Below are positions 1,716 through 18,008 of a stretch of 64,000 nt of DNA, piece by piece; the first letter of the stretch is position 1; every line of letters begins with the position of its first letter. Origin of the DNA: an uncultured bacterium (GTDB taxonomy: Bacteria > Patescibacteriota > Microgenomatia > Levybacterales > UBA12049). The stretch spans positions 256,809 to 320,808 of the forward strand of contig CAWGXL010000011.1 in NCBI GenBank assembly GCA_963826535.1. The letters are read 5' to 3'. The notes beneath the pieces are model-generated. The model was given only the letters and a program-made list of their open reading frames with translations. It made no database searches and had not been told where the DNA came from. The translations under genes and the position numbers were made by a program.

Positions 1716-1752
1716 AAACTGTCATGGTGTCAATAACTTATATTGACAGTTT
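1716..1752. promoter_or_regulatory. Operator-like 9-bp inverted repeat AAACTGTCA-N19-TGACAGTTT in the divergent intergenic region
   Basis: Perfect inverted repeat read directly. TTGACAG (-35-like) and TACATATAAT (-10-like) lie downstream toward the 1803 gene. Confidence 0.5.
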
Positions 1753-1802
1753 AATTAGATTACATATAATATATAATGTTACGCGCATAAATAATAAGTA
1801 AA

Positions 1803-3249: not shown

Positions 3250-3474
3250 ATGCGTAAACATATTGTGTCTGATCCAAATATATTGAGCGGTAAGCCTGTG
3301 ATTGCGGGAACACGTATTCCTATTGTCCAGATACTTTTTTTACTAAAGACAGGCTATACGCTACAAGGAATCCAAGAGGAGTATCCCAATGTCAAACTTT
3401 CCACTTTACAACGCGTGTTAAACGAGTTGGCATCCGATATCTCTATTGCAAGGCATGACTCACAAAATTTATAA
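3250..3474 (+). CDS. DUF433-family protein (antitoxin-like)
   Basis: SGKPVIAGTRIPIVQIL motif characteristic of DUF433. Confidence 0.6.
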   Translation: MRKHIVSDPNILSGKPVIAGTRIPIVQILFLLKTGYTLQGIQEEYPNVKLSTLQRVLNELASDISIARHDSQNL

Positions 3475-3811
3475 ATTCAAACTGCTGCTTGATGAAGGTT
3501 TCTTCCGAAGACATAGGCTTGCAAAACTAAACCAGCTATATAACGTAAAACATATAACCGGAGATTTCCATAAAGAAGGTTTATCTGATCCTGACGTGGT
3601 AGAGATAGCAAAAAAGGAAAATCGGCTTGTGGTTACTTATAATGAAAAAGATTTCCGCACACTAGCAAATAAAAGCAAGGAAACAGGCGTGATCGGTATC
3701 TCTGATAATCTATCCGCGAAGCAGATTGATACGAAACTTACTGCGCTTTTAAAGCAAAGCAATCCAAAAGATCTTTTCGGCAGATTTACGCCTCTGAGCG
3801 GAGAAACATAA
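3446..3811 (+). CDS. DUF5615 / Mut7-C-like PIN-fold protein (toxin-like partner of DUF433)
   Basis: Overlaps the DUF433 gene. Resembles the three other DUF5615 ORFs in this window (LLLDE..., RLVVTYNEKDF). Confidence 0.55.
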   Translation: MQGMTHKIYKFKLLLDEGFFRRHRLAKLNQLYNVKHITGDFHKEGLSDPDVVEIAKKENRLVVTYNEKDFRTLANKSKETGVIGISDNLSAKQIDTKLTALLKQSNPKDLFGRFTPLSGET

Positions 3812-6298: not shown

Positions 6299-6901
6299 TT
6301 GTTTATGGCTAAAACTATGCATAGTATTAATCTGATGCCTAACCGTGGGGATACGGTACTTATACAATTTCTTAATTGGGCACTCACAATCGGACGCCTG
6401 CTTATCATCCTGGTTGAAACATTGGCGCTTGGTACGTTTCTTTACAGATTTTCTCTGGATATGCAGATCGTGGATTTAAAGGATAAAATAAAAGTTCAGC
6501 GTGCTTTTGTTACCAGTTATAAGAGCCAGGAAGAAATATTCAGGAATCTTCAGGACAGGCTTAATCTAGTCAAGAAATATGATACAAAAGCTGAGAGCAG
6601 TCCAAAGGCTTTAAGCGATATTATAGACATGGGACGCGGGTATATTACTTTTCGAAGTATATATATTTCCAATACGGTTTTTCGGATAGAAGCGTCAGCG
6701 CCGACAGTTGCACCTCTGACAGTGTTTGTTAATTCTCTGAAAAAGTATCCACTTATTAAGTCAATAAGCATAGATAAAGTGGAGAACAAGACATCAAGCG
6801 CCGAAATTATTGTGGGTATTAGCGCATATTTGACCGCGGATACAAAAGCCGCGGATACAACGGCCGAACAATTACAAACTCAGGAACCTTTTAAAGAATA
6901 A
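6299..6901 (+). CDS. pilN: PilN-like type IV pilus assembly protein
   Basis: N-terminal INLMP motif (PilN hallmark INLLP), one TM helix, then a coiled-coil periplasmic region. Confidence 0.5.
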   Translation: MFMAKTMHSINLMPNRGDTVLIQFLNWALTIGRLLIILVETLALGTFLYRFSLDMQIVDLKDKIKVQRAFVTSYKSQEEIFRNLQDRLNLVKKYDTKAESSPKALSDIIDMGRGYITFRSIYISNTVFRIEASAPTVAPLTVFVNSLKKYPLIKSISIDKVENKTSSAEIIVGISAYLTADTKAADTTAEQLQTQEPFKE

Positions 6902-6907
6902 AAAATT

Positions 6908-7534
6908 ATGATCAGACTGCCTAAGAATTTTTTTACAAACCTAACTCCCGCACAATATAAGGAGTATCTAAAGCTGTTACCTGACCTCAAGGATGAAAAG
7001 TCACAACTTTATGCCATGCTTGGGTTCACATTAGTCGCGATGTCGTTTTTTGGGATCTTTGCTATTAATCCTACACTTTCAACTATTGCAGAGTTAAAAC
7101 GGCAGCTCTCAGATTTGCATTTTGTTTACGAAAAACTTGTAACGAAAACACAAAATCTTAGTACGCTGCAGCAGAAATATCAATATTTATCAGGTGATCT
7201 TCCTGTAATAATTGATGCAATGCCCATGAAACCCGAGGTGCCAAAGTTTGTGGCTCAGATTAATGCGCTAATTGCGGAATCTAATTTAGAGACAAGAACA
7301 TTGCAGACTTATGGGGTAGAAATTACTCCGAATAAAAAAGTTCCTGAAAAACAAGCTTTATCTTATGTCTTTTCACTGGAAGCCGAGGGCACGTACGAGG
7401 AAATGCTTATATTTGTGCAGAAAATAACGCGGTTTAACCGACTGGTCACTATTGATATGCTCACTATTGCCAAAGACGAAAAAAGAGATGTGCTTATACT
7501 TAATTTGCGCGGCAGAGAGTATTTTAAACCGTAG
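6908..7534 (+). CDS. pilO: PilO-like pilus assembly protein
   Basis: Short cytoplasmic N-terminus, TM helix and coiled coil. Immediately downstream of the pilN-like gene. Confidence 0.45.
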   Translation: MIRLPKNFFTNLTPAQYKEYLKLLPDLKDEKSQLYAMLGFTLVAMSFFGIFAINPTLSTIAELKRQLSDLHFVYEKLVTKTQNLSTLQQKYQYLSGDLPVIIDAMPMKPEVPKFVAQINALIAESNLETRTLQTYGVEITPNKKVPEKQALSYVFSLEAEGTYEEMLIFVQKITRFNRLVTIDMLTIAKDEKRDVLILNLRGREYFKP

Positions 7535-7587
7535 CTTAAACCATCCGGGTATTATACGCTATATGAAATTTAATAAAAGAGGAGTAT

Positions 7588-8049
7588 ATGTTTAAACGAA
7601 GAGGAGTATTACTAGTTTTGTGGTTGACCTTTATTACGGTGGTGGCCTGGATCGGCTTTCATATATATCACATTACCGTAACTTCGACTATCAGCGAAGA
7701 GTTGCAATTGCAAATCATACCGATTGATCCTAATTTTGATATGGATACTATTAATAGACTAAAGGGGCGAGTAAAAGTTGAGCCGCTTTATCAATTTAAT
7801 GAGAACACCGCGTCCGCCTCCCCGCTTAGCGGGGCTGATGCAGACGTAGCTGACCCCGTTTCAATCGGGGCTGAGGCAAATTCTCCACCCGCCGACACGG
7901 GACAGGGTCCAATTGATGCAAGTCCAACGACCGACTCCCCGCAAAGCCTTGGCTCCGAGGGGCAAGCAGAGCCGGGCGACGAAAGGGCGACGGACGAGGG
8001 TATCTCTCCAACTGAAAGTACATTGCCGCTAGTAACCGGAGCGCCATGA
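7588..8049 (+). CDS. Membrane-anchored acidic S/P/D-rich protein (PilP-like?)
   Basis: N-terminal TM helix. Its ATGA stop overlaps the start of the next gene. Confidence 0.4.
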   Translation: MFKRRGVLLVLWLTFITVVAWIGFHIYHITVTSTISEELQLQIIPIDPNFDMDTINRLKGRVKVEPLYQFNENTASASPLSGADADVADPVSIGAEANSPPADTGQGPIDASPTTDSPQSLGSEGQAEPGDERATDEGISPTESTLPLVTGAP

Positions 8050-9632
8050 AAAAAAAGTTTTGGGATAAACGCATACCTTCTCTTCTAGGGCTCTTATTTT
8101 TAGCCATTTCGGTGGGTATGGTTGCGTGGTTTGGGGGAGGTTATACAGAACTCAGAGGAAGAGCTTCTGTTGAAGAAACTCCTAAAAATGTACAAATTTC
8201 TAATATAACTGACACATCCTTTACTGTTTTTTACACTACCGATATAAAGACGGAAGGCGCTGTAGCTTATGCCCGAGACCCGAGTTTCGGACAGGTAGGG
8301 CTTGACGACCGGGACCGGGAGAGCGGTAAACCCAGTTTGCGTCAGGTACACTACGTAACTCTAACACAACTCGATGCGGGCACGAAATATTATTTCGCGA
8401 TTCAGTCAGGAGCAACAACGCATCTAAATAATTCTCAACCATACGAGGTAACGACAGCGACAGTTAAGCTGGGGACTCCACCTAATAAGACTCCAATTGC
8501 AGGTACGGTTAATTTGGAGGATGGGAGTATTCCGCTGGAAGGAATTGTTTTTGTAGATACGTCGGCGTCCCCGCTCAGCGGGGCTGGGGCAAGCCCTTCG
8601 GCAGGCTTAGCGCCTAGCGGATCTGCGCAGACTTCGCAAATTCTATCCGTACTTCTGCGGGAAGACGGGAGTTATATCCTTCCTATTAGTTCCATGCGGA
8701 CAAAAGATCTGGCCACTTATATTGAATTTACTTCCGAAACTAAAATAAACCTGACCATTCTTAATGCAACAAGTCAGTCACGAGTCTCACTGCTCGCAAA
8801 TCAGACAAGTCCGGTTCCTTTGATTACATTATCCAAGGATTATGATTTTGCCGCTAATTCCCAGTCAATAACAAACCCCACAGCTTCCGGGTCCGGCACC
8901 ACGCTTAGCGGGGCCGGGGCTGCTTCTACTTCAGGTGAGTTAACTCCAAATGATTCCAATTCAGGATTTCCATTATTTCCCGCCACTGTTGCCAGCGGGC
9001 CGGCTATATTGACACCAGAAAACGATGAAAATTTTATTGACCCACAGCCTATATTTGCCGGAACGGCGCTGCCTAACGCAACAGTCGAAATTATAATTCA
9101 GTCAGATGAAACACTACAGGCAAGTGTTCAGTCGGATAATTTTGGTAATTGGCAATACCGGCCGCCTCTACCACTTACACCAGGCGAGCATATTTTTACA
9201 ATTATTGCCCGAGATACTAATGGCATCCTGCAGACTATTAATCGAAATTTTACTGTGTATGCGTCAGGCAGCCAATTTAACGAACCATCGATTGAGCCGA
9301 CAATTGATCCTAATGCAACTCCGACCAGTGCGGCTTCAGCTACACCAACACAATCCCCAACGCCTACAATAAATGTAACTCCTATATCACTGCCCACACC
9401 TACTACGTCATCTATTTCAGCTACGCCCGACTTGACACTAACAATTAGCCCGACACCAAATTTGGCGCTTACAATGGCCGCATTATCTGCGACCCCTGAT
9501 CCCGCTTCCCTTACAGCAACAGCCATGGCAACAGGCGCCACTATTGCTCCAAGCGGAAATTTTACATTGCTTTTTGCCGGTTTTATTGCTGCTCTTTCAA
9601 TTACCGCAGGTTTTGTGCTATTCTTCTTGTAG
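8046..9632 (+). CDS. Large surface protein with an Fn3-like domain, a T/P/S-rich linker and a C-terminal hydrophobic anchor
   Basis: N-terminal TM helix, an Fn3-like block (ISNITDTSFTVFYTTD...YYFAIQSG), Thr/Pro/Ser-rich tracts and a terminal TM segment (FAGFIAALSITAGFVLFFL). Confidence 0.6.
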   Translation: MKKKFWDKRIPSLLGLLFLAISVGMVAWFGGGYTELRGRASVEETPKNVQISNITDTSFTVFYTTDIKTEGAVAYARDPSFGQVGLDDRDRESGKPSLRQVHYVTLTQLDAGTKYYFAIQSGATTHLNNSQPYEVTTATVKLGTPPNKTPIAGTVNLEDGSIPLEGIVFVDTSASPLSGAGASPSAGLAPSGSAQTSQILSVLLREDGSYILPISSMRTKDLATYIEFTSETKINLTILNATSQSRVSLLANQTSPVPLITLSKDYDFAANSQSITNPTASGSGTTLSGAGAASTSGELTPNDSNSGFPLFPATVASGPAILTPENDENFIDPQPIFAGTALPNATVEIIIQSDETLQASVQSDNFGNWQYRPPLPLTPGEHIFTIIARDTNGILQTINRNFTVYASGSQFNEPSIEPTIDPNATPTSAASATPTQSPTPTINVTPISLPTPTTSSISATPDLTLTISPTPNLALTMAALSATPDPASLTATAMATGATIAPSGNFTLLFAGFIAALSITAGFVLFFL

Positions 9633-9647
9633 AAAAATTCCAGCGCT

Positions 9648-10556
9648 ATGACCTTTCTTGAGAAATTTGAGCTTCTGAAAAAATCTATTCCTGTTCCGGC
9701 TATTACAATAGGCCCAAATACGGTTGAGTGCGAATATTCAGATGCAATCTATATCGGTAAAAATTGTTATCACTGTTTTGACGGATATAAGATCTTTGAC
9801 AGTATGTTTACAAACTTTGGATGGGGAAATAAGGTTGTAGATTGCGAATATGTGACTGAATCTGAGAAAGTTTATGAATGCGTTGAATGTACTAAATGCT
9901 ATAACTCGACATTTCTAATAGACTGTAATAACTCGACAGATTGCCATTTTTCTTCATTATTAAATTCCTGCAGCGATTGTTTTGGATGTGTTGGTTTAAC
10001 TCACAAAAAATATTGTATTTTTAACCGGCAATATAGCAAAGAAGAATATCTGAAAAAAGTTGAAGAGTTAAAAAAACAAGAAGCTCAAAAGAATCTTAAG
10101 CAAATGCTTGAAATAAAACAGACAATTCCTCACCCGGCAAGCCAACAAGCCAATAACGAAAATTGCGCATATGGCAATTATATATATGGATCCAAAAACT
10201 GCTATTGGTGTTTTAATACATACTATAGTGAAAATTCAGGATTTACCTACTTCAGTGGAGCAGCGAAGAACTGTTGGGATATGTTTCAAGCAGGAGGTCA
10301 ACCGGATATTAAAATATTTTCAGAGCTTTGCTATGAGAATGTATATACAGATACATGTTACAATAGCGCATATTTAACATTTAGTGACAATTGTACAAAT
10401 TGCTCATACAGCGATCATCTTTTAAACTGCACCGATTGCTTCGGCTGCGTGGGGCTCAAAAATAAAAAATGCTGCATTTTAAATAATCAACTAAATCAAG
10501 TACAATACGAAAAAGCTGTAAAGAGCATAAAAAATGAGTTGGGATGGAAAAATTAG
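9648..10556 (+). CDS. Cys-rich repeat protein, paralog 3
   Basis: Same family. Starts 16 nt after the surface-protein gene. Confidence 0.85.
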   Translation: MTFLEKFELLKKSIPVPAITIGPNTVECEYSDAIYIGKNCYHCFDGYKIFDSMFTNFGWGNKVVDCEYVTESEKVYECVECTKCYNSTFLIDCNNSTDCHFSSLLNSCSDCFGCVGLTHKKYCIFNRQYSKEEYLKKVEELKKQEAQKNLKQMLEIKQTIPHPASQQANNENCAYGNYIYGSKNCYWCFNTYYSENSGFTYFSGAAKNCWDMFQAGGQPDIKIFSELCYENVYTDTCYNSAYLTFSDNCTNCSYSDHLLNCTDCFGCVGLKNKKCCILNNQLNQVQYEKAVKSIKNELGWKN

Positions 10557-10583
10557 AATCGATGAAAAATAATAATTAATGTT

Positions 10584-11480
10584 ATGACATTTTTAGAAAA
10601 ATATACATTGTTGAAAAAATCAATCCCAGTACCGGCGGTGACATTTGTGGGGAATATGGATTCCTCATACTCGAATTTTATGTGGTTGTGTAAAAATTGC
10701 CAATATTGTTTTCATGGATATAAACTTTATGATAGTTTATATGCAATCCACGCATGGGGACAAACTCTAGTTGACTGCCTTTATGTCACTGAATCCGAAA
10801 ATTGCTACGAATGTGTTGAATGTACAAAATGTTATGGTTCTACATACCTTATCGAAGGCAATAATTCGACAAATTGCCATTTTTCTGCACTTTTGAGCTC
10901 CTGCACCGATTGTTTTGGCTGCGTGGGGTTAACCAACAAAAAATATTGTATTTTTAATAAACAATTCTCAAAAGGAGATTACTTTGAGAAGTTAGAAGAA
11001 TTGAAAAAAGAACCATCAGAAAAGATCCTAACGCACATGTTTGATTTAAAAAAACAAATCCCCCATCCGGCAAGCCAGCAAGCTAATACTGAAAATTGTC
11101 CTTATGGAAATTATATATATGATTCAAAAAACAGTTATTGGTGTTTTAATAGTTATTATATAGAGAATAGCGGTTATAATACTTTTAGCGGATGGGCAAA
11201 AAACTGTTGGGATGTCTTTTTATTCGGAGAGCCTAATGGGGTTAATGAGTTATGTTATGAACATTTTTATACGGCACGATGTTTTAACTCAGCCTTTCTT
11301 ACTCATTCTACTGACTGTACCAATTGCCATAATAGTACGTATCTCAGAAACTGCTCAGACTGCTTCGGGTGTGTCGGACTAGCCAATAAAAAGTATTGCA
11401 TTTTGAATAATCAACTAACAAAAGACCAATATGAAATAGCTGTGAAAGAAATTAAGAAAGAATTGGGATGGAAAAATTAG
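10584..11480 (+). CDS. Cys-rich repeat protein, paralog 4
   Basis: Same family. Near-identical to paralog 6 in the N-terminal variable block. Confidence 0.85.
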   Translation: MTFLEKYTLLKKSIPVPAVTFVGNMDSSYSNFMWLCKNCQYCFHGYKLYDSLYAIHAWGQTLVDCLYVTESENCYECVECTKCYGSTYLIEGNNSTNCHFSALLSSCTDCFGCVGLTNKKYCIFNKQFSKGDYFEKLEELKKEPSEKILTHMFDLKKQIPHPASQQANTENCPYGNYIYDSKNSYWCFNSYYIENSGYNTFSGWAKNCWDVFLFGEPNGVNELCYEHFYTARCFNSAFLTHSTDCTNCHNSTYLRNCSDCFGCVGLANKKYCILNNQLTKDQYEIAVKEIKKELGWKN

Positions 11481-11508
11481 AATCGATGAAAAATAAAATT
11501 AAAATAGT

Positions 11509-12408
11509 ATGACATTTATTGAAAATTATGAGGTCCTGAAAAAATCTATTCCTGTTCCGGCTGTCTGGATTGATACGGTTACTAAAGACGCTGACTATAT
11601 TGATTATACTTATAGAAGCAAAGGCAGCTATTATGCTTTTGGGGGGTATTATCTTGAAGACTGTTTGTATACGGAATTTTGCGGCTGGGGGAATAAGCTT
11701 GTAGATTCACATTCAGTTACGAAAGCAGAAAAATGTTACTTTTGTATTAATTGCGACCAATGTCATAACTGTAGTTATCTAATGGATTGCAATAGCTGTA
11801 CAGATTGCCACTTCTCTGCATTTTTAAGTTCCTGCAACGATTGTTTTGGCTGCGTTGCTTTAACTCATAAAAAATATTGTATTTTTAACAAACAGTATAC
11901 AAAGCAAGAATATTTTAAAAAAGTAAAAGAATTAAAAAAAGAGGAACCTGATAATATCTTTGCACTAATGTTTGAGTTAAAAGAAAAAATTCCGCATCCT
12001 GCAAGCCGGCAAGTCGATAACGTAAATTGTCCTTATGGAAATTACATATACAATTCAAAAAACTGTTATTGGTCTTTTGGTACTTTTGAAAGCACAAACA
12101 GCGGTTATACTTATTATTGTTCGAGATTAAAAAATTGTTGGGACGTGTTCAGTTCAGGCGGAGAGCAGGGTACTGCGAAATGTTATTCTATTGTGAGTAC
12201 ACAGAACAGCGTTGACTCTGCGTTTTTAGATTTCTGTGAAGGATGTAGTAATTGTTATTATAGTCTTAGTTTGATAAACTGCACCGATTGTTTCGGTTGT
12301 GTGGGACTTAAAAATAAAAAATATTGTATTTTGAATAATCAGTTAACTAAAGAGAAATACGAAAGAGCAATGAAGAGCATCATAAAAGAATTAGAGTGGA
12401 AATTTTAG
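11509..12408 (+). CDS. Cys-rich repeat protein, paralog 5
   Basis: Same family. Confidence 0.85.
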   Translation: MTFIENYEVLKKSIPVPAVWIDTVTKDADYIDYTYRSKGSYYAFGGYYLEDCLYTEFCGWGNKLVDSHSVTKAEKCYFCINCDQCHNCSYLMDCNSCTDCHFSAFLSSCNDCFGCVALTHKKYCIFNKQYTKQEYFKKVKELKKEEPDNIFALMFELKEKIPHPASRQVDNVNCPYGNYIYNSKNCYWSFGTFESTNSGYTYYCSRLKNCWDVFSSGGEQGTAKCYSIVSTQNSVDSAFLDFCEGCSNCYYSLSLINCTDCFGCVGLKNKKYCILNNQLTKEKYERAMKSIIKELEWKF

Positions 12409-12465
12409 TGGGTGAGACTCGTCATTTTTTTTGTAAAAATTGTTCACTATGGTATACTAAGCGTG

Positions 12466-12705
12466 ATGAAGACTACGCGGTACTTTAGAGAACAAGTATT
12501 GCGTAAAAGATCTTTTATAAAGCAGTCATGGATCAAGCTAGCGCTTGCAAGACCGGATAAAAAGGAGATTCAAACAGACGGAAGAATGCGTTACTGGATT
12601 TATATATCAACCCTTAGGAAATATTTACGGGTTGTTACTTTATCAGACGGCGAGACGGTACATAACGCATTCCCGGATAGAAATTATAAAAAGGAAAAGC
12701 TATGA
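12466..12705 (+). CDS. DUF4258-family protein (toxin-like)
   Basis: Probable ATG at 12466, preceded by TTGTAA-16-TATACT at 12431-12459. Paired by a 4-nt overlap with the DUF2283-like gene. Confidence 0.5.
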   Translation: MKTTRYFREQVLRKRSFIKQSWIKLALARPDKKEIQTDGRMRYWIYISTLRKYLRVVTLSDGETVHNAFPDRNYKKEKL

Positions 12706-12917
12706 AATTTAACTATTATAAAGACACAGATTCACTCTATATTGATCTTTCTGAAAAAAAAAGTGTGGATTCCAAAGAAGTGAGTCCGGGAATTGTGCTG
12801 GATTTTGATGCAAAAGGAAATCTGGTTGGCATTGATATAGATCACGCAAGTAAGCATGTTAATTTAAAACGCCTGGAAACAGAAGGCGTTTCCTTTTCTA
12901 CAATTGTCTCGACATAA
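12702..12917 (+). CDS. DUF2283-family protein (antitoxin-like)
   Basis: MKFNYYKDTDSLYIDLSEKK... typical of DUF2283 (YDxxxDxLYI). Confidence 0.55.
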   Translation: MKFNYYKDTDSLYIDLSEKKSVDSKEVSPGIVLDFDAKGNLVGIDIDHASKHVNLKRLETEGVSFSTIVST

Positions 12918-12938
12918 CCCTTTGTTGAGGTTTCAATC

Positions 12939-13835
12939 ATGACCTTTCTTGAAAAATACGGGCTACTGGAAAAATCCGTTCCTATACCGGCGGTGACATT
13001 TATGGGGAATATGGATTCTTCATTTTCGGATTTTATGTGGATGTGTAAAAATTGCCAATATTGTTTTTTTGGATATAAACTTTATGACAGTCTCTATGCA
13101 ATCCATTCATGGGGGCAAACTCTAGTTGACTGCCTTTATGTCACCGAATCCGAAAATTGTTATGAATGTGTTGAATGCACAAAATGCTTTGGCTCTACAT
13201 ATCTTATAGATTGCGATAATAGTACAGATTGTCATTTTTCCGCACTACTCAACTCCTGCAACGATTGCTTCGGGTGTGTGGGTTTGAAACATAAGAGAAA
13301 CTGCATTTTTAATAAACAATACACCAAGGAAGAATATTTTAAAAAGCACGAAGAATTGAAAAATGAAAATCCCCAAAAGATGCTTAAGCAAATGCTTGAG
13401 TTAAAACAACAAATACCGCATCCGGCAAGCCAACAAGCCAATACTGAAAATTGTCCATATGGCAACTATATTTATGATTCAAATAGCAGTTATTGGTGTT
13501 TTAATAGCTACTATATTGAGAATTGCGGATATAATACTAATAGCGCTTGGGCAAAAAACTGTTGGGACGTATTCAAGTTTGGAGATCCTAAGGGAACTAA
13601 TGAATTGTGCTATGAACATTTCTATACGACGCTGTGTTATAACTCTGCCTTTCTTACACATTCTACCAGCTGTACCGAATGCCATTATAGTTCTTATTTA
13701 AGTAACTGCTCCAATTGCTTCGGATGTTTCGGGTTAAAGAATAAAAAATATTGTATTTTGAATAATCAGTTAACTAAAGAACAATATGAAAGCGCTGTAA
13801 AAGAAATTAGGAAAGAGCTTGGGTGGAAAATTTAG
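12939..13835 (+). CDS. Cys-rich repeat protein, paralog 6
   Basis: Same family. Confidence 0.85.
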   Translation: MTFLEKYGLLEKSVPIPAVTFMGNMDSSFSDFMWMCKNCQYCFFGYKLYDSLYAIHSWGQTLVDCLYVTESENCYECVECTKCFGSTYLIDCDNSTDCHFSALLNSCNDCFGCVGLKHKRNCIFNKQYTKEEYFKKHEELKNENPQKMLKQMLELKQQIPHPASQQANTENCPYGNYIYDSNSSYWCFNSYYIENCGYNTNSAWAKNCWDVFKFGDPKGTNELCYEHFYTTLCYNSAFLTHSTSCTECHYSSYLSNCSNCFGCFGLKNKKYCILNNQLTKEQYESAVKEIRKELGWKI

Positions 13836-16383: not shown

Positions 16384-17343
16384 TTATTCTCCAATAATTT
16401 TGTAGGGAGTAGGATGAAGACTAGATTGGTTGGTGATTGAGTAAAAAATAGCAGCTCTTGTTTCATTTCTTGGGTATTCTTGAAATCCTATTTTGGGAGT
16501 TGGTTCAGGGAATACTTGAGGCATTAGCGATTGCGGTATTGCTTCATACCTATTGCACATTCTTAACGCCCGAATAGCTTGAGGGCCTAATACAAAATCT
16601 ATCTTATCTCCTGGTTTAAAAAGGTTTGAGTTGTTTATTAAATATTGCTTTAAAACCAATACTTGACCGATCGTATTGTCTATAGGTTTATCATCAAGTC
16701 TATCAATTATGTCTACCATAACCGGGGGTATAAATGAACTTTGTGAGTTAACCACTTTGCGTATAGCATCAGCTTCTTGCTGGTTGCCTAGATAGAGAAA
16801 GTGAATATTTGCGTCTTGAATACTGCTTCGCACACTAGGGCGAAGGTCATTTAATTCTGGGTCTAACCCGTCAAGTAGACGATTTTTGGTGAAGACTGAA
16901 TAATCATTATTTGTGGCGATGCCGGCAAGATGGATACCGAGTATGGCTGCTGTATCGGCCCGTTTTCTGTCCATTAGCTCAGCCCATGGCTTATCTTTAA
17001 AGCGATCTTCCTTGAATGGTAAAAGATAAGTTCCCCGGGCTGACAAATTGACAATAAGCCGTGTAAGGTGCGCCTCGCTCTTTGATATATTCCATTTCTC
17101 AGGATTTCGTGCAGCCAACTCTATTCTATTAATTTCACTTAGGCATTCAGTGGCTAATAGAACTAACTGCTTATTTGTTCTTCCCAAACTTCCTTTTTGA
17201 TGGCGGGCTCTTTTAATATCCGTTTTACTATCATTTAATACTTTTTCAGTTGTGGGTAGATCATCTTTTTGATATTCAGCATATTCAGGCATTAAACGTC
17301 TATACTGGATTATTCGGTCTGCATCAATTGAGCTTTCAGACAT
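16384..17343 (-). CDS. Hypothetical protein (319 aa)
   Basis: Long ORF with no recognisable motif. Confidence 0.5.
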   Translation of the reverse strand: MSESSIDADRIIQYRRLMPEYAEYQKDDLPTTEKVLNDSKTDIKRARHQKGSLGRTNKQLVLLATECLSEINRIELAARNPEKWNISKSEAHLTRLIVNLSARGTYLLPFKEDRFKDKPWAELMDRKRADTAAILGIHLAGIATNNDYSVFTKNRLLDGLDPELNDLRPSVRSSIQDANIHFLYLGNQQEADAIRKVVNSQSSFIPPVMVDIIDRLDDKPIDNTIGQVLVLKQYLINNSNLFKPGDKIDFVLGPQAIRALRMCNRYEAIPQSLMPQVFPEPTPKIGFQEYPRNETRAAIFYSITNQSSLHPTPYKIIGE

Positions 17344-17363: not shown

Positions 17364-18008
17364 CTATATTGCGTAGTATTCCATTTCAAAGGAGATGGGG
17401 AAGTCCGGTTTGGGTAGATTGGCTAACTCGGAAATAGATTTATTGTAATACTGCGGATAGTTTTTAGAAAAGTAGGTATCGACATTTTCCCAAATCGGGT
17501 TTTCGCCAAGTTGGCGTATTATCACATCAATAATATTTCTCGCCTCAACTTCAACATCGCTTAGTATTAATGCTTTCCGGGAAACTGATGCGGGTAAAGT
17601 GTCCGGAAATTGTTTGTGCAAAAGCGGATTACCGATTTTCTGATACCTGTGTATTGTAGCTTCGCGGCCAAGAAGTCGCAGCCAGTAGATATATTTTACG
17701 ATTATGTAAAATACATCGGGTATAAACATAATTAATTGATCTTTGTATTCAAGCTGAGACGCGCGGCTTGCGGCTTGATTGAGGTGACTTAGCGAGAGAC
17801 TAATCGCATCATCCCGGGTGGAATAGCCAAGTGAGAGGGTGTCATTGGAAAAATTAAATTTGGGCCAGGGATCAGCGGCAACATTTAAATATTTTTTGGC
17901 TTCTTCCGCACCTTTGGTCAGCGAGTCAAGTATAAGATTAAAATCGTTCTCAGGTAATTGTAATCCATTATGGGTTAAGGTTTTGTAGTCAAAGGGCTTA
18001 TTTTCCAT
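17364..18008 (-). CDS. Hypothetical protein (214 aa)
   Basis: ORF with no recognisable motif. Lies 40 nt downstream of znuB on the same strand. Confidence 0.5.
   Translation of the reverse strand: MENKPFDYKTLTHNGLQLPENDFNLILDSLTKGAEEAKKYLNVAADPWPKFNFSNDTLSLGYSTRDDAISLSLSHLNQAASRASQLEYKDQLIMFIPDVFYIIVKYIYWLRLLGREATIHRYQKIGNPLLHKQFPDTLPASVSRKALILSDVEVEARNIIDVIIRQLGENPIWENVDTYFSKNYPQYYNKSISELANLPKPDFPISFEMEYYAI

Follow-up and report, generated by a model that had tools for sequence, protein, structure and literature searches.

Does a block of near-identity between two members of a tandem gene family record recent turnover of the array, or an older kinship that shows only where the members normally differ? 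A locus in an uncultured bacterium of the Patescibacteriota raises this question. We analysed 64,000 nucleotides (nt) of contig CAWGXL010000011.1, and this whole 64-kb stretch is referred to below as the window. It carries six same-strand (+) paralogs, P1 to P6, of about 300 amino acids (aa) each. According to an earlier note on this DNA, the hypervariable N-terminal blocks of P4 (10584-11480, +; 298 aa) and P6 (12939-13835, +; 298 aa) are nearly identical even though P5 (11509-12408, +; 299 aa) and a small gene pair lie between them. This was taken, together with a shared spacer motif, as a sign of recent segmental duplication or gene conversion in an actively evolving array. On balance, our analysis favours another account: the multigene family is large and for the most part ancient, P4 and P6 are sisters within it and its youngest duplicates to have survived, and they arose by an ordinary old duplication.

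The similarity that had been noticed is real. The peptides compared in the earlier note correspond to residues 19-89 in both proteins and differ at 7 of 71 positions, and codons 14-90 of the alignment contain 26 mismatches in 225 nt (88.4% nt identity). Across the N-terminal variable block, delimited as the high-identity tract (10623-10850, +, in P4; 12978-13205, +, in P6), the two genes share 88-90% nt and 90% aa identity, compared with 50-63% nt for other in-window pairs. In 60-nt sliding windows within this block, P4-P6 identity is 0.87-0.93, and that of any other pair is at most 0.77. A repeat search, which is independent of the alignment, grouped 10584-10883 with 12939-13238 in a two-copy family (84%). 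Of the 120 best homologues in the database, none besides P6 is more than 65% identical to P4 in the N block, and outside the source genome the protein database contains no relative closer than 65%. The two genes align with zero indels and are 79.5% identical in aa and 80.8% in nt over their whole length, as against 53-65% aa and 62.5-70.0% nt for the other 14 in-window pairs; at the nucleotide level, P4 and P6 are closer than any other pair in the window. P5, which lies between them together with a two-gene cassette, is indeed very different: it is the most divergent window copy, with 53-59% aa identity to the others.

However, the high identity is not specific to the N block. Along the alignment, P4-P6 nt identity is 0.69 at codons 1-17 (background), 0.90 at codons 18-90 (the N variable block; 0.50-0.63 in other pairs), 0.73 at codons 91-160 (background again, with P5, P1 and P2 nearer to P4 here), 0.88 at codons 161-200, where every pair is high, 0.79 at codons 201-245 (the C variable block; about 0.5 in other pairs) and 0.79 from codon 246 to the end. 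In the C-terminal variable block (residues 198-255; 11175-11348, +, in P4; 13530-13703 in P6), the pair is 76% identical in aa and about 79% in nt; other window pairs share 30-56% aa, and other window paralogs reach at most 53%. Thus, the sister signal extends beyond the N block and is equally visible in the C variable block. At the protein level, in a comparison of 120 homologues, P4 and P6 are each other's nearest neighbours in either variable block; P0003, an out-of-window paralog from the same genome, comes next in each, at 0.63-0.67 aa identity. The substitutions C27S and C236S are common to P4 and P6. In the conserved blocks, P4-P6 does not stand out from the other pairs, not even by its synonymous differences at codons with an unchanged amino acid. 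The likeness of the two N blocks belongs to a sister relationship that spans the whole gene and shows only where the paralogs normally differ.

The relationship is also an old one, and the word "recent" does not fit it. By the Nei-Gojobori method (NG86), synonymous divergence (dS) between P4 and P6 is about 0.46 for the N block, 1.18 for the C half and 1.4 for the remainder of the gene; outside the N block, the values lie between 1.0 and 1.4. The corresponding proportion of synonymous differences (pS) is 0.35 in the N block (95% confidence interval 0.18-0.52) and 0.59 in the C half (0.47-0.72). Even within the N block, 21% of the codons that encode an unchanged amino acid differ synonymously between P4 and P6, and the longest identical run anywhere between the two genes is 29 nt. 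The ratio of nonsynonymous to synonymous divergence (dN/dS) is about 0.12 in every block, which indicates that, between P4 and P6, purifying selection acts on the very blocks described as hypervariable. At columns that are conserved in the family, the two copies have 8 and 10 changes, compared with a family median of 8; in view of these ordinary counts, we reject decay or relaxed constraint of either gene.

Comparison with the rest of the family places the pair in time. P4 is a 100% match to database protein P0001, encoded on an 894,453-bp contig, and P6 is identical to P0002. In-genome identity has a median of 61%, and P4-P6, at 80%, is the closest of the 378 in-genome pairs listed, followed by P2-P0030 (79% aa) and P1-P0106 (76% aa). 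For several paralogs, the closest copy lies in another genome and not in their own (P3-P0007, 75%; P0064-P0016, 76%), and most of the family expansion therefore predates those genome splits. The 80% aa identity of P4-P6 barely exceeds the 75-76% aa found between presumed cross-genome orthologues, and the P4/P6 pair is only slightly younger than the splits.

In the scenario that we favour, a single non-adjacent duplication, or a rearrangement within the array, would have given rise to P4 and P6 long ago, at a synonymous divergence of about 0.5-1.2, and both copies would since then have been held intact by purifying selection. The two variable blocks would carry the genealogical signal, with P4 and P6 mutually closest in both. 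In the conserved blocks, all paralogs would be about equally similar through constraint and occasional short conversion tracts between paralogs, and the P4-P6 sister signal would vanish there for that reason. Part of the near-identity of the N block may come from its generally slower evolution compared with the C variable block, and a later short conversion may have added to this.

Exact matches in conserved regions suggest that short inter-paralog conversion tracts do occur. P5 and P6 share 41 nt (12313-12353 and 13740-13780, +) in the conserved C-terminal region at codons 274-287, where a Sawyer-type run test gives p = 0.0025. The same test gives p = 0.002 for P1-P4 at codons 122-131, and both values are borderline after correction for 15 pairs. 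P1 and P4 share a 29-nt exact match in a conserved block (2163-2191 and 10941-10969). In both pairs, the two paralogs are otherwise distant.

Several points weigh against the scenario of a single old duplication. With uniform neutral rates, such a duplication does not predict that the N block should have less synonymous divergence than the C half, yet this is what the pair displays (codon permutation on pS, p = 0.012). The middle block of P4-P6, codons 91-160, has 0.63-0.65 aa identity, like that of random paralogs, and is slightly more divergent than in other close pairs. As for the functional model offered below for the family, it draws only on predicted structure and on gene neighbourhood in other genomes. 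We also looked for a donor paralog of the P4/P6 middle block; none is supported, the best matches being just 0.76-0.77.

The uneven synonymous divergence could instead reflect partial gene conversion, in which an older duplication (recorded in the C half at about 79% nt) was followed by the copying of a tract of about 230 bp between P4 and P6, resetting only the N block. We regard this as possible but doubtful. The pS of the N block is lower than that of the rest of the gene as well (p = 0.003), and synonymous change at codons whose amino acid is unchanged has a rate of 0.21 within the N block, as against 0.37 outside it (Fisher p = 0.026). Identity drops on either side of the tract, to 0.69-0.75 over codons 1-13, which is the background level, and to 0.68-0.77 past codon 90. 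A Sawyer-type test locates the longest P4-P6 concordant run inside the N block (p = 0.035), and the ratio of C-block to N-block aa distance is 2.4 for P4-P6 versus 1.0-1.5 for other related pairs. However, the N block was preselected for looking similar, and an unbiased two-breakpoint maximum chi-square scan gives p = 0.11; when synonymous changes at unchanged codons are compared between the N block and the C half, p = 0.10. Across the family, moreover, the C block is generally the less conserved of the two, as between presumed cross-genome orthologues (N versus C block, 0.73 versus 0.60, 0.77 versus 0.69 and 0.75 versus 0.64). The topology ((P4,P6),P0003) holds in both variable blocks. The depth ratio is 0.28 for the N block, from 7 differences, and 0.70 for the C block, from 14, both at the protein level. 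The 26 mismatches within the tract mean that any N-block conversion is old. The gene conversion raised in the earlier note is thus weakly supported, with p = 0.003-0.03 on the preselected block but no significance in the unbiased breakpoint scan.

It is very unlikely that a recent segmental duplication of DNA carrying P4 (or P6) produced the pair and that the array is now turning over. P4 and P6 are the closest pair among the in-genome copies listed, and the two-gene cassette inserted between P5 and P6 indicates that the locus can take insertions. Against this, P4 and P6 differ at 19% of nt overall with a dS of about 1, and they share no identical run beyond the short one given above. A comparison of their upstream and downstream flanks revealed no shared similarity, the first 13 codons are at background level (69-73% identity), and P5 and the cassette lying between the two genes have not been duplicated. 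The common spacer motif, described below, belongs to the P3-P4 and P4-P5 junctions. These data do not support a duplication that was recent or segmental, and P4/P6, as an old pair, gives no sign of current turnover in the array.

Programmed diversification, either by a diversity-generating retroelement or by cassette-based antigenic variation with P4 and P6 swapping their N block, is barely credible: the family does have conserved and variable blocks in tandem arrays, but the N-block mismatches are not adenine-specific (P4 bases A8 C8 G3 T7), transitions make up 19 of the 26 and third codon positions account for 15, dN/dS is about 0.12, no near-identical tracts were found among the window paralogs, and every window copy is a complete open reading frame (ORF) with its own start and stop codon, with no truncated silent cassettes. 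Many diversity-generating retroelements are carried by Patescibacteria; here, such an element is contradicted by the mismatch spectrum and purifying selection, and silent-cassette antigenic variation by complete ORFs under purifying selection. In bacterial multigene families such as Borrelia vls, Neisseria pilS and Anaplasma msp2, genes made of conserved and variable blocks evolve through duplication and gene conversion. The window array resembles them in its block structure, its tandem layout and some statistical support for short conversion tracts in conserved blocks. It differs from them in having no expression site with silent partial cassettes, in variable blocks that are under purifying selection and kept at 72-77% between presumed orthologues of different genomes, and in proteins whose sequences show neither a signal peptide nor a membrane segment. 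For P4 and P6 we thus return to an old duplication of sister paralogs, a case of routine duplication and divergence that does not demonstrate present-day array turnover.

The spacer motif deserves separate treatment. The window contains exactly two copies of the 16-nt sequence AATCGATGAAAAATAA, which start at 10557 and 11481, so the earlier note was correct that two spacers share it, but the motif says nothing about P4-P6. Each copy is the end of an identical 34-nt element: the one at the P3-P4 junction (10539-10572, +) consists of the last 18 nt of P3 and 16 nt of spacer, and the one at the P4-P5 junction (11463-11496, +) of the last 18 nt of P4 and 16 nt of spacer. Both spacers are 27-28 nt long, and the gene bodies flanking the element are only 55-65% identical in aa. 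The element could be a boundary left over from tandem duplication, or else a small element of conversion or function. It fits a tandem duplication with a retained or homogenised unit boundary, and it concerns P3, P4 and P5.

The remaining paralogs differ in their surroundings. P1 (1803-2711, +; 302 aa) has its own promoter, a perfect sigma-70 consensus TTGACA-16-TATAAT at 1743-1770 (+), 33 nt before its start, and is divergent from a gene for a TrmB-type regulator (879-1673, -). Within the window, only P1 keeps this context. A TrmB-like regulator gene adjoins a family gene in 18 of 80 loci, and P1 may therefore occupy the ancestral regulated position. P2 (3839-4747, +; 302 aa) lies directly downstream of a DUF433 gene (3250-3474, +; expect value (E) 6e-16) and a DUF5615 gene (3446-3811, +; E 2e-13). 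P3 (9648-10556, +; 302 aa) starts 15 nt past the stop of a surface-protein gene (8046-9632, +), which encodes 528 aa with fn3 and Big_13 domains and hydrophobic ends. This gene is preceded by a run of small membrane protein genes (6299-8049, +), among which the ORFs at 6299-6901 and 6908-7534 are putatively PilN/PilO-like, as read from their sequences. P3 to P6 have no promoter-sized gap before them and may be co-transcribed with the upstream surface/pilus genes. Farther downstream, two adjacent ORFs of 319 and 214 aa (16384-17343 and 17364-18008, both -) have no Pfam match. A tRNA scan and an Rfam scan at the gathering score found nothing in the whole window.

The gap between P5 and P6 holds two small overlapping ORFs, which the earlier note had read as a DUF4258/DUF2283 pair. 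The second (12702-12917, +; 71 aa) is a DUF2283 protein gene (PF10049; E 6.4e-19, 68 bits against a cutoff of 23). The first (12412-12705, +; 97 aa from a GTG start or 78 aa from ATG) has no Pfam match at E ≤ 1 from either start, DUF4258 included, no NCBIfam match at E ≤ 1 and no PADLOC match. The 4-nt overlap with a small upstream ORF is typical of DUF2283 two-gene cassettes, but the upstream partner here is without detectable DUF4258. The first ORF may encode the toxin of a putative toxin-antitoxin pair. With the DUF433/DUF5615 pair at P2 and this one at P6, there are two small cassettes of two genes, different from each other, that stand immediately 5' of a paralog.

What, then, is the family to which P4 and P6 belong? 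Pfam, NCBIfam and PADLOC scans of the paralogs returned no family, with chance-level scores only (SufB, E 0.04; amylase middle domain, E 0.03). A PDB profile search gave one insignificant match (hexapeptide acetyltransferase, E 0.08), and literature searches returned nothing on this family. The family itself is large. A database search with P4 found 451 homologues at E ≤ 1e-3, the top matches covering 99-100% of P4, and a profile search found 3,420 clusters (50% identity), of which 1,104 score at E ≤ 1e-30. On the 894,453-bp source contig, at least 28 family members are present among the top 120 matches, which is about 3% of a 0.9-Mb genome.

Each protein is built from two homologous halves. 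The N and C halves are 34-41% identical in all six paralogs (for example, 10584-11006 versus 11034-11477), and each half ends in C-x2-C-x2-C-x8-C followed by N-x-Q and Y. The invariant or near-invariant columns are C107, C110, C113, C122, N125, Q127 and Y133 in the first half and C257, C260, C263, C272, N275, Q277 and Y283 in the second. The invariant four-cysteine motif is a candidate metal site. A module of a paralog-specific variable block, followed by a conserved cysteine block and helices, occurs twice per protein. The sequence appears to repeat with a 15-residue period, with Cys or Ser at the ladder positions. Cysteines other than those of the invariant motif swap with serine among the paralogs, an exchange that would be expected for small ladder residues within a tight solenoid. 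The paralog sequences have no apparent signal peptide and no apparent membrane segment.

Structure prediction with AlphaFold2 (AF2) from a 67-sequence alignment gave a mean predicted local distance difference test score (pLDDT) of 75.8, and about 90 over residues 50-90. The model contains two beta-solenoid domains, at about residues 20-125 and 165-275, with helices after each. An AF2 half-domain model built from the 12 window half-sequences reached a pLDDT of just 60.8. Foldseek searches against the PDB and viral models returned mostly beta-helix proteins and some cysteine-rich viral proteins, with template modelling (TM) scores of 0.10-0.19 for the PDB hits; at TM ≤ 0.19, no specific structural relative is identified. 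The predicted secondary structure resembles that of beta-solenoids of known structure, among them the pentapeptide-repeat proteins MfpA and AlbG and right-handed beta-helix proteins such as the AlgE4 A-module and phage tailspikes, in its very short strands and regular period. The window proteins differ from the pentapeptide-repeat proteins MfpA and AlbG in having no Pfam pentapeptide match (Foldseek TM 0.12-0.17), and from right-handed beta-helix enzymes in having no pectate-lyase Pfam match.

To place the window copies within the family, we examined its distribution. Nearly all its occurrences in reference genomes are in Patescibacteria (Levy-, Beckwith-, Peregrini-, Peri-, Gracili-, Sacchari- and Paceibacteria); a few records carry other labels. 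The majority form is long, about 560 aa, and has a treble-clef zinc finger at either end (PF13451 and PF23477). Its central 300 residues align end to end with the window copies at 27-33% identity, and both halves have the invariant C-x2-C-x2-C-x8-C, N-x-Q and Y columns, as in the window copies. In contrast, the window copies are short and lack both zinc fingers and the region between solenoid 2 and the C-terminal finger. Long forms are often in tandem arrays of 2-5 copies, and six loci (L014, L026, L032, L052, L057 and L064, from Peri- and Peregrinibacteria, Nomurabacteria and other Patescibacteria) have 4-5 long-form copies within 7 kb. Since such arrays occur in other Patescibacteria, array formation is a family-wide habit and not peculiar to the source genome. 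The copy number here, at least 28, far exceeds the 1-5 copies per locus found elsewhere.

Gene neighbourhoods in other genomes offer some indication of function. In the closest relatives, from the Microgenomates group, the short-form gene is preceded by a 93-aa zinc-finger gene and a 762-aa VirD4/TraD-like ATPase gene. At L001 (434-3918), and also at L006, L007 and L008, these form a tight three-gene unit of ATPase (762 aa), treble-clef zinc finger (93 aa) and, last, solenoid protein. The ATPase matches the PADLOC model mad8 at E 6e-18, probably through the ATPase domain only. Across several classes, a VirD4-like ATPase gene adjoins a family gene in 21 of 80 loci. In the window, no copy has a zinc-finger domain by Pfam, a tblastn search with the 93-aa finger protein found no match, and there is no VirD4-like ATPase gene. 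With neither a zinc-finger domain nor a zinc-finger gene in the window, its copies are orphan short forms. On the source contig, the finger-protein query found a single zinc-finger protein cluster, outside the window, versus at least 28 solenoid copies. From this ratio and the neighbourhoods, we infer that the solenoids may be the variable partners of a constant zinc-finger and ATPase module.

With low confidence, we suggest that the family members may be cytoplasmic metal-binding solenoid proteins whose variable rungs would set partner specificity, acting with a single-copy treble-clef zinc-finger protein and, in many relatives, with a VirD4-like ATPase encoded next to them. It is tempting to go further and speculate that the short forms are interchangeable specificity subunits, which would pair through their conserved blocks with the shared zinc-finger protein and the VirD4-like ATPase in a Patescibacteria-specific transfer, secretion or defence module, the variable blocks being the recognition surface; in this specific form the proposal is unlikely to be right. 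If it were true, the expansion to 28 or more copies would have built up a repertoire of specificities, with that of P4 and P6 the latest to be duplicated, and block-wise conversion would shuffle the N and C recognition blocks.

Together, our results make the family context more interesting than the P4/P6 pair itself. The family is large, with 3,420 clusters and no curated model, its members are predicted to be cysteine-rich solenoids of two domains, and it is spread widely among Patescibacteria. The sub-clade of P4, P6 and P0003 offers a natural series on which to ask which blocks set specificity. Patescibacteria are reduced, host-dependent bacteria whose interaction machinery is largely unknown, and a family kept at such cost merits biochemical study.

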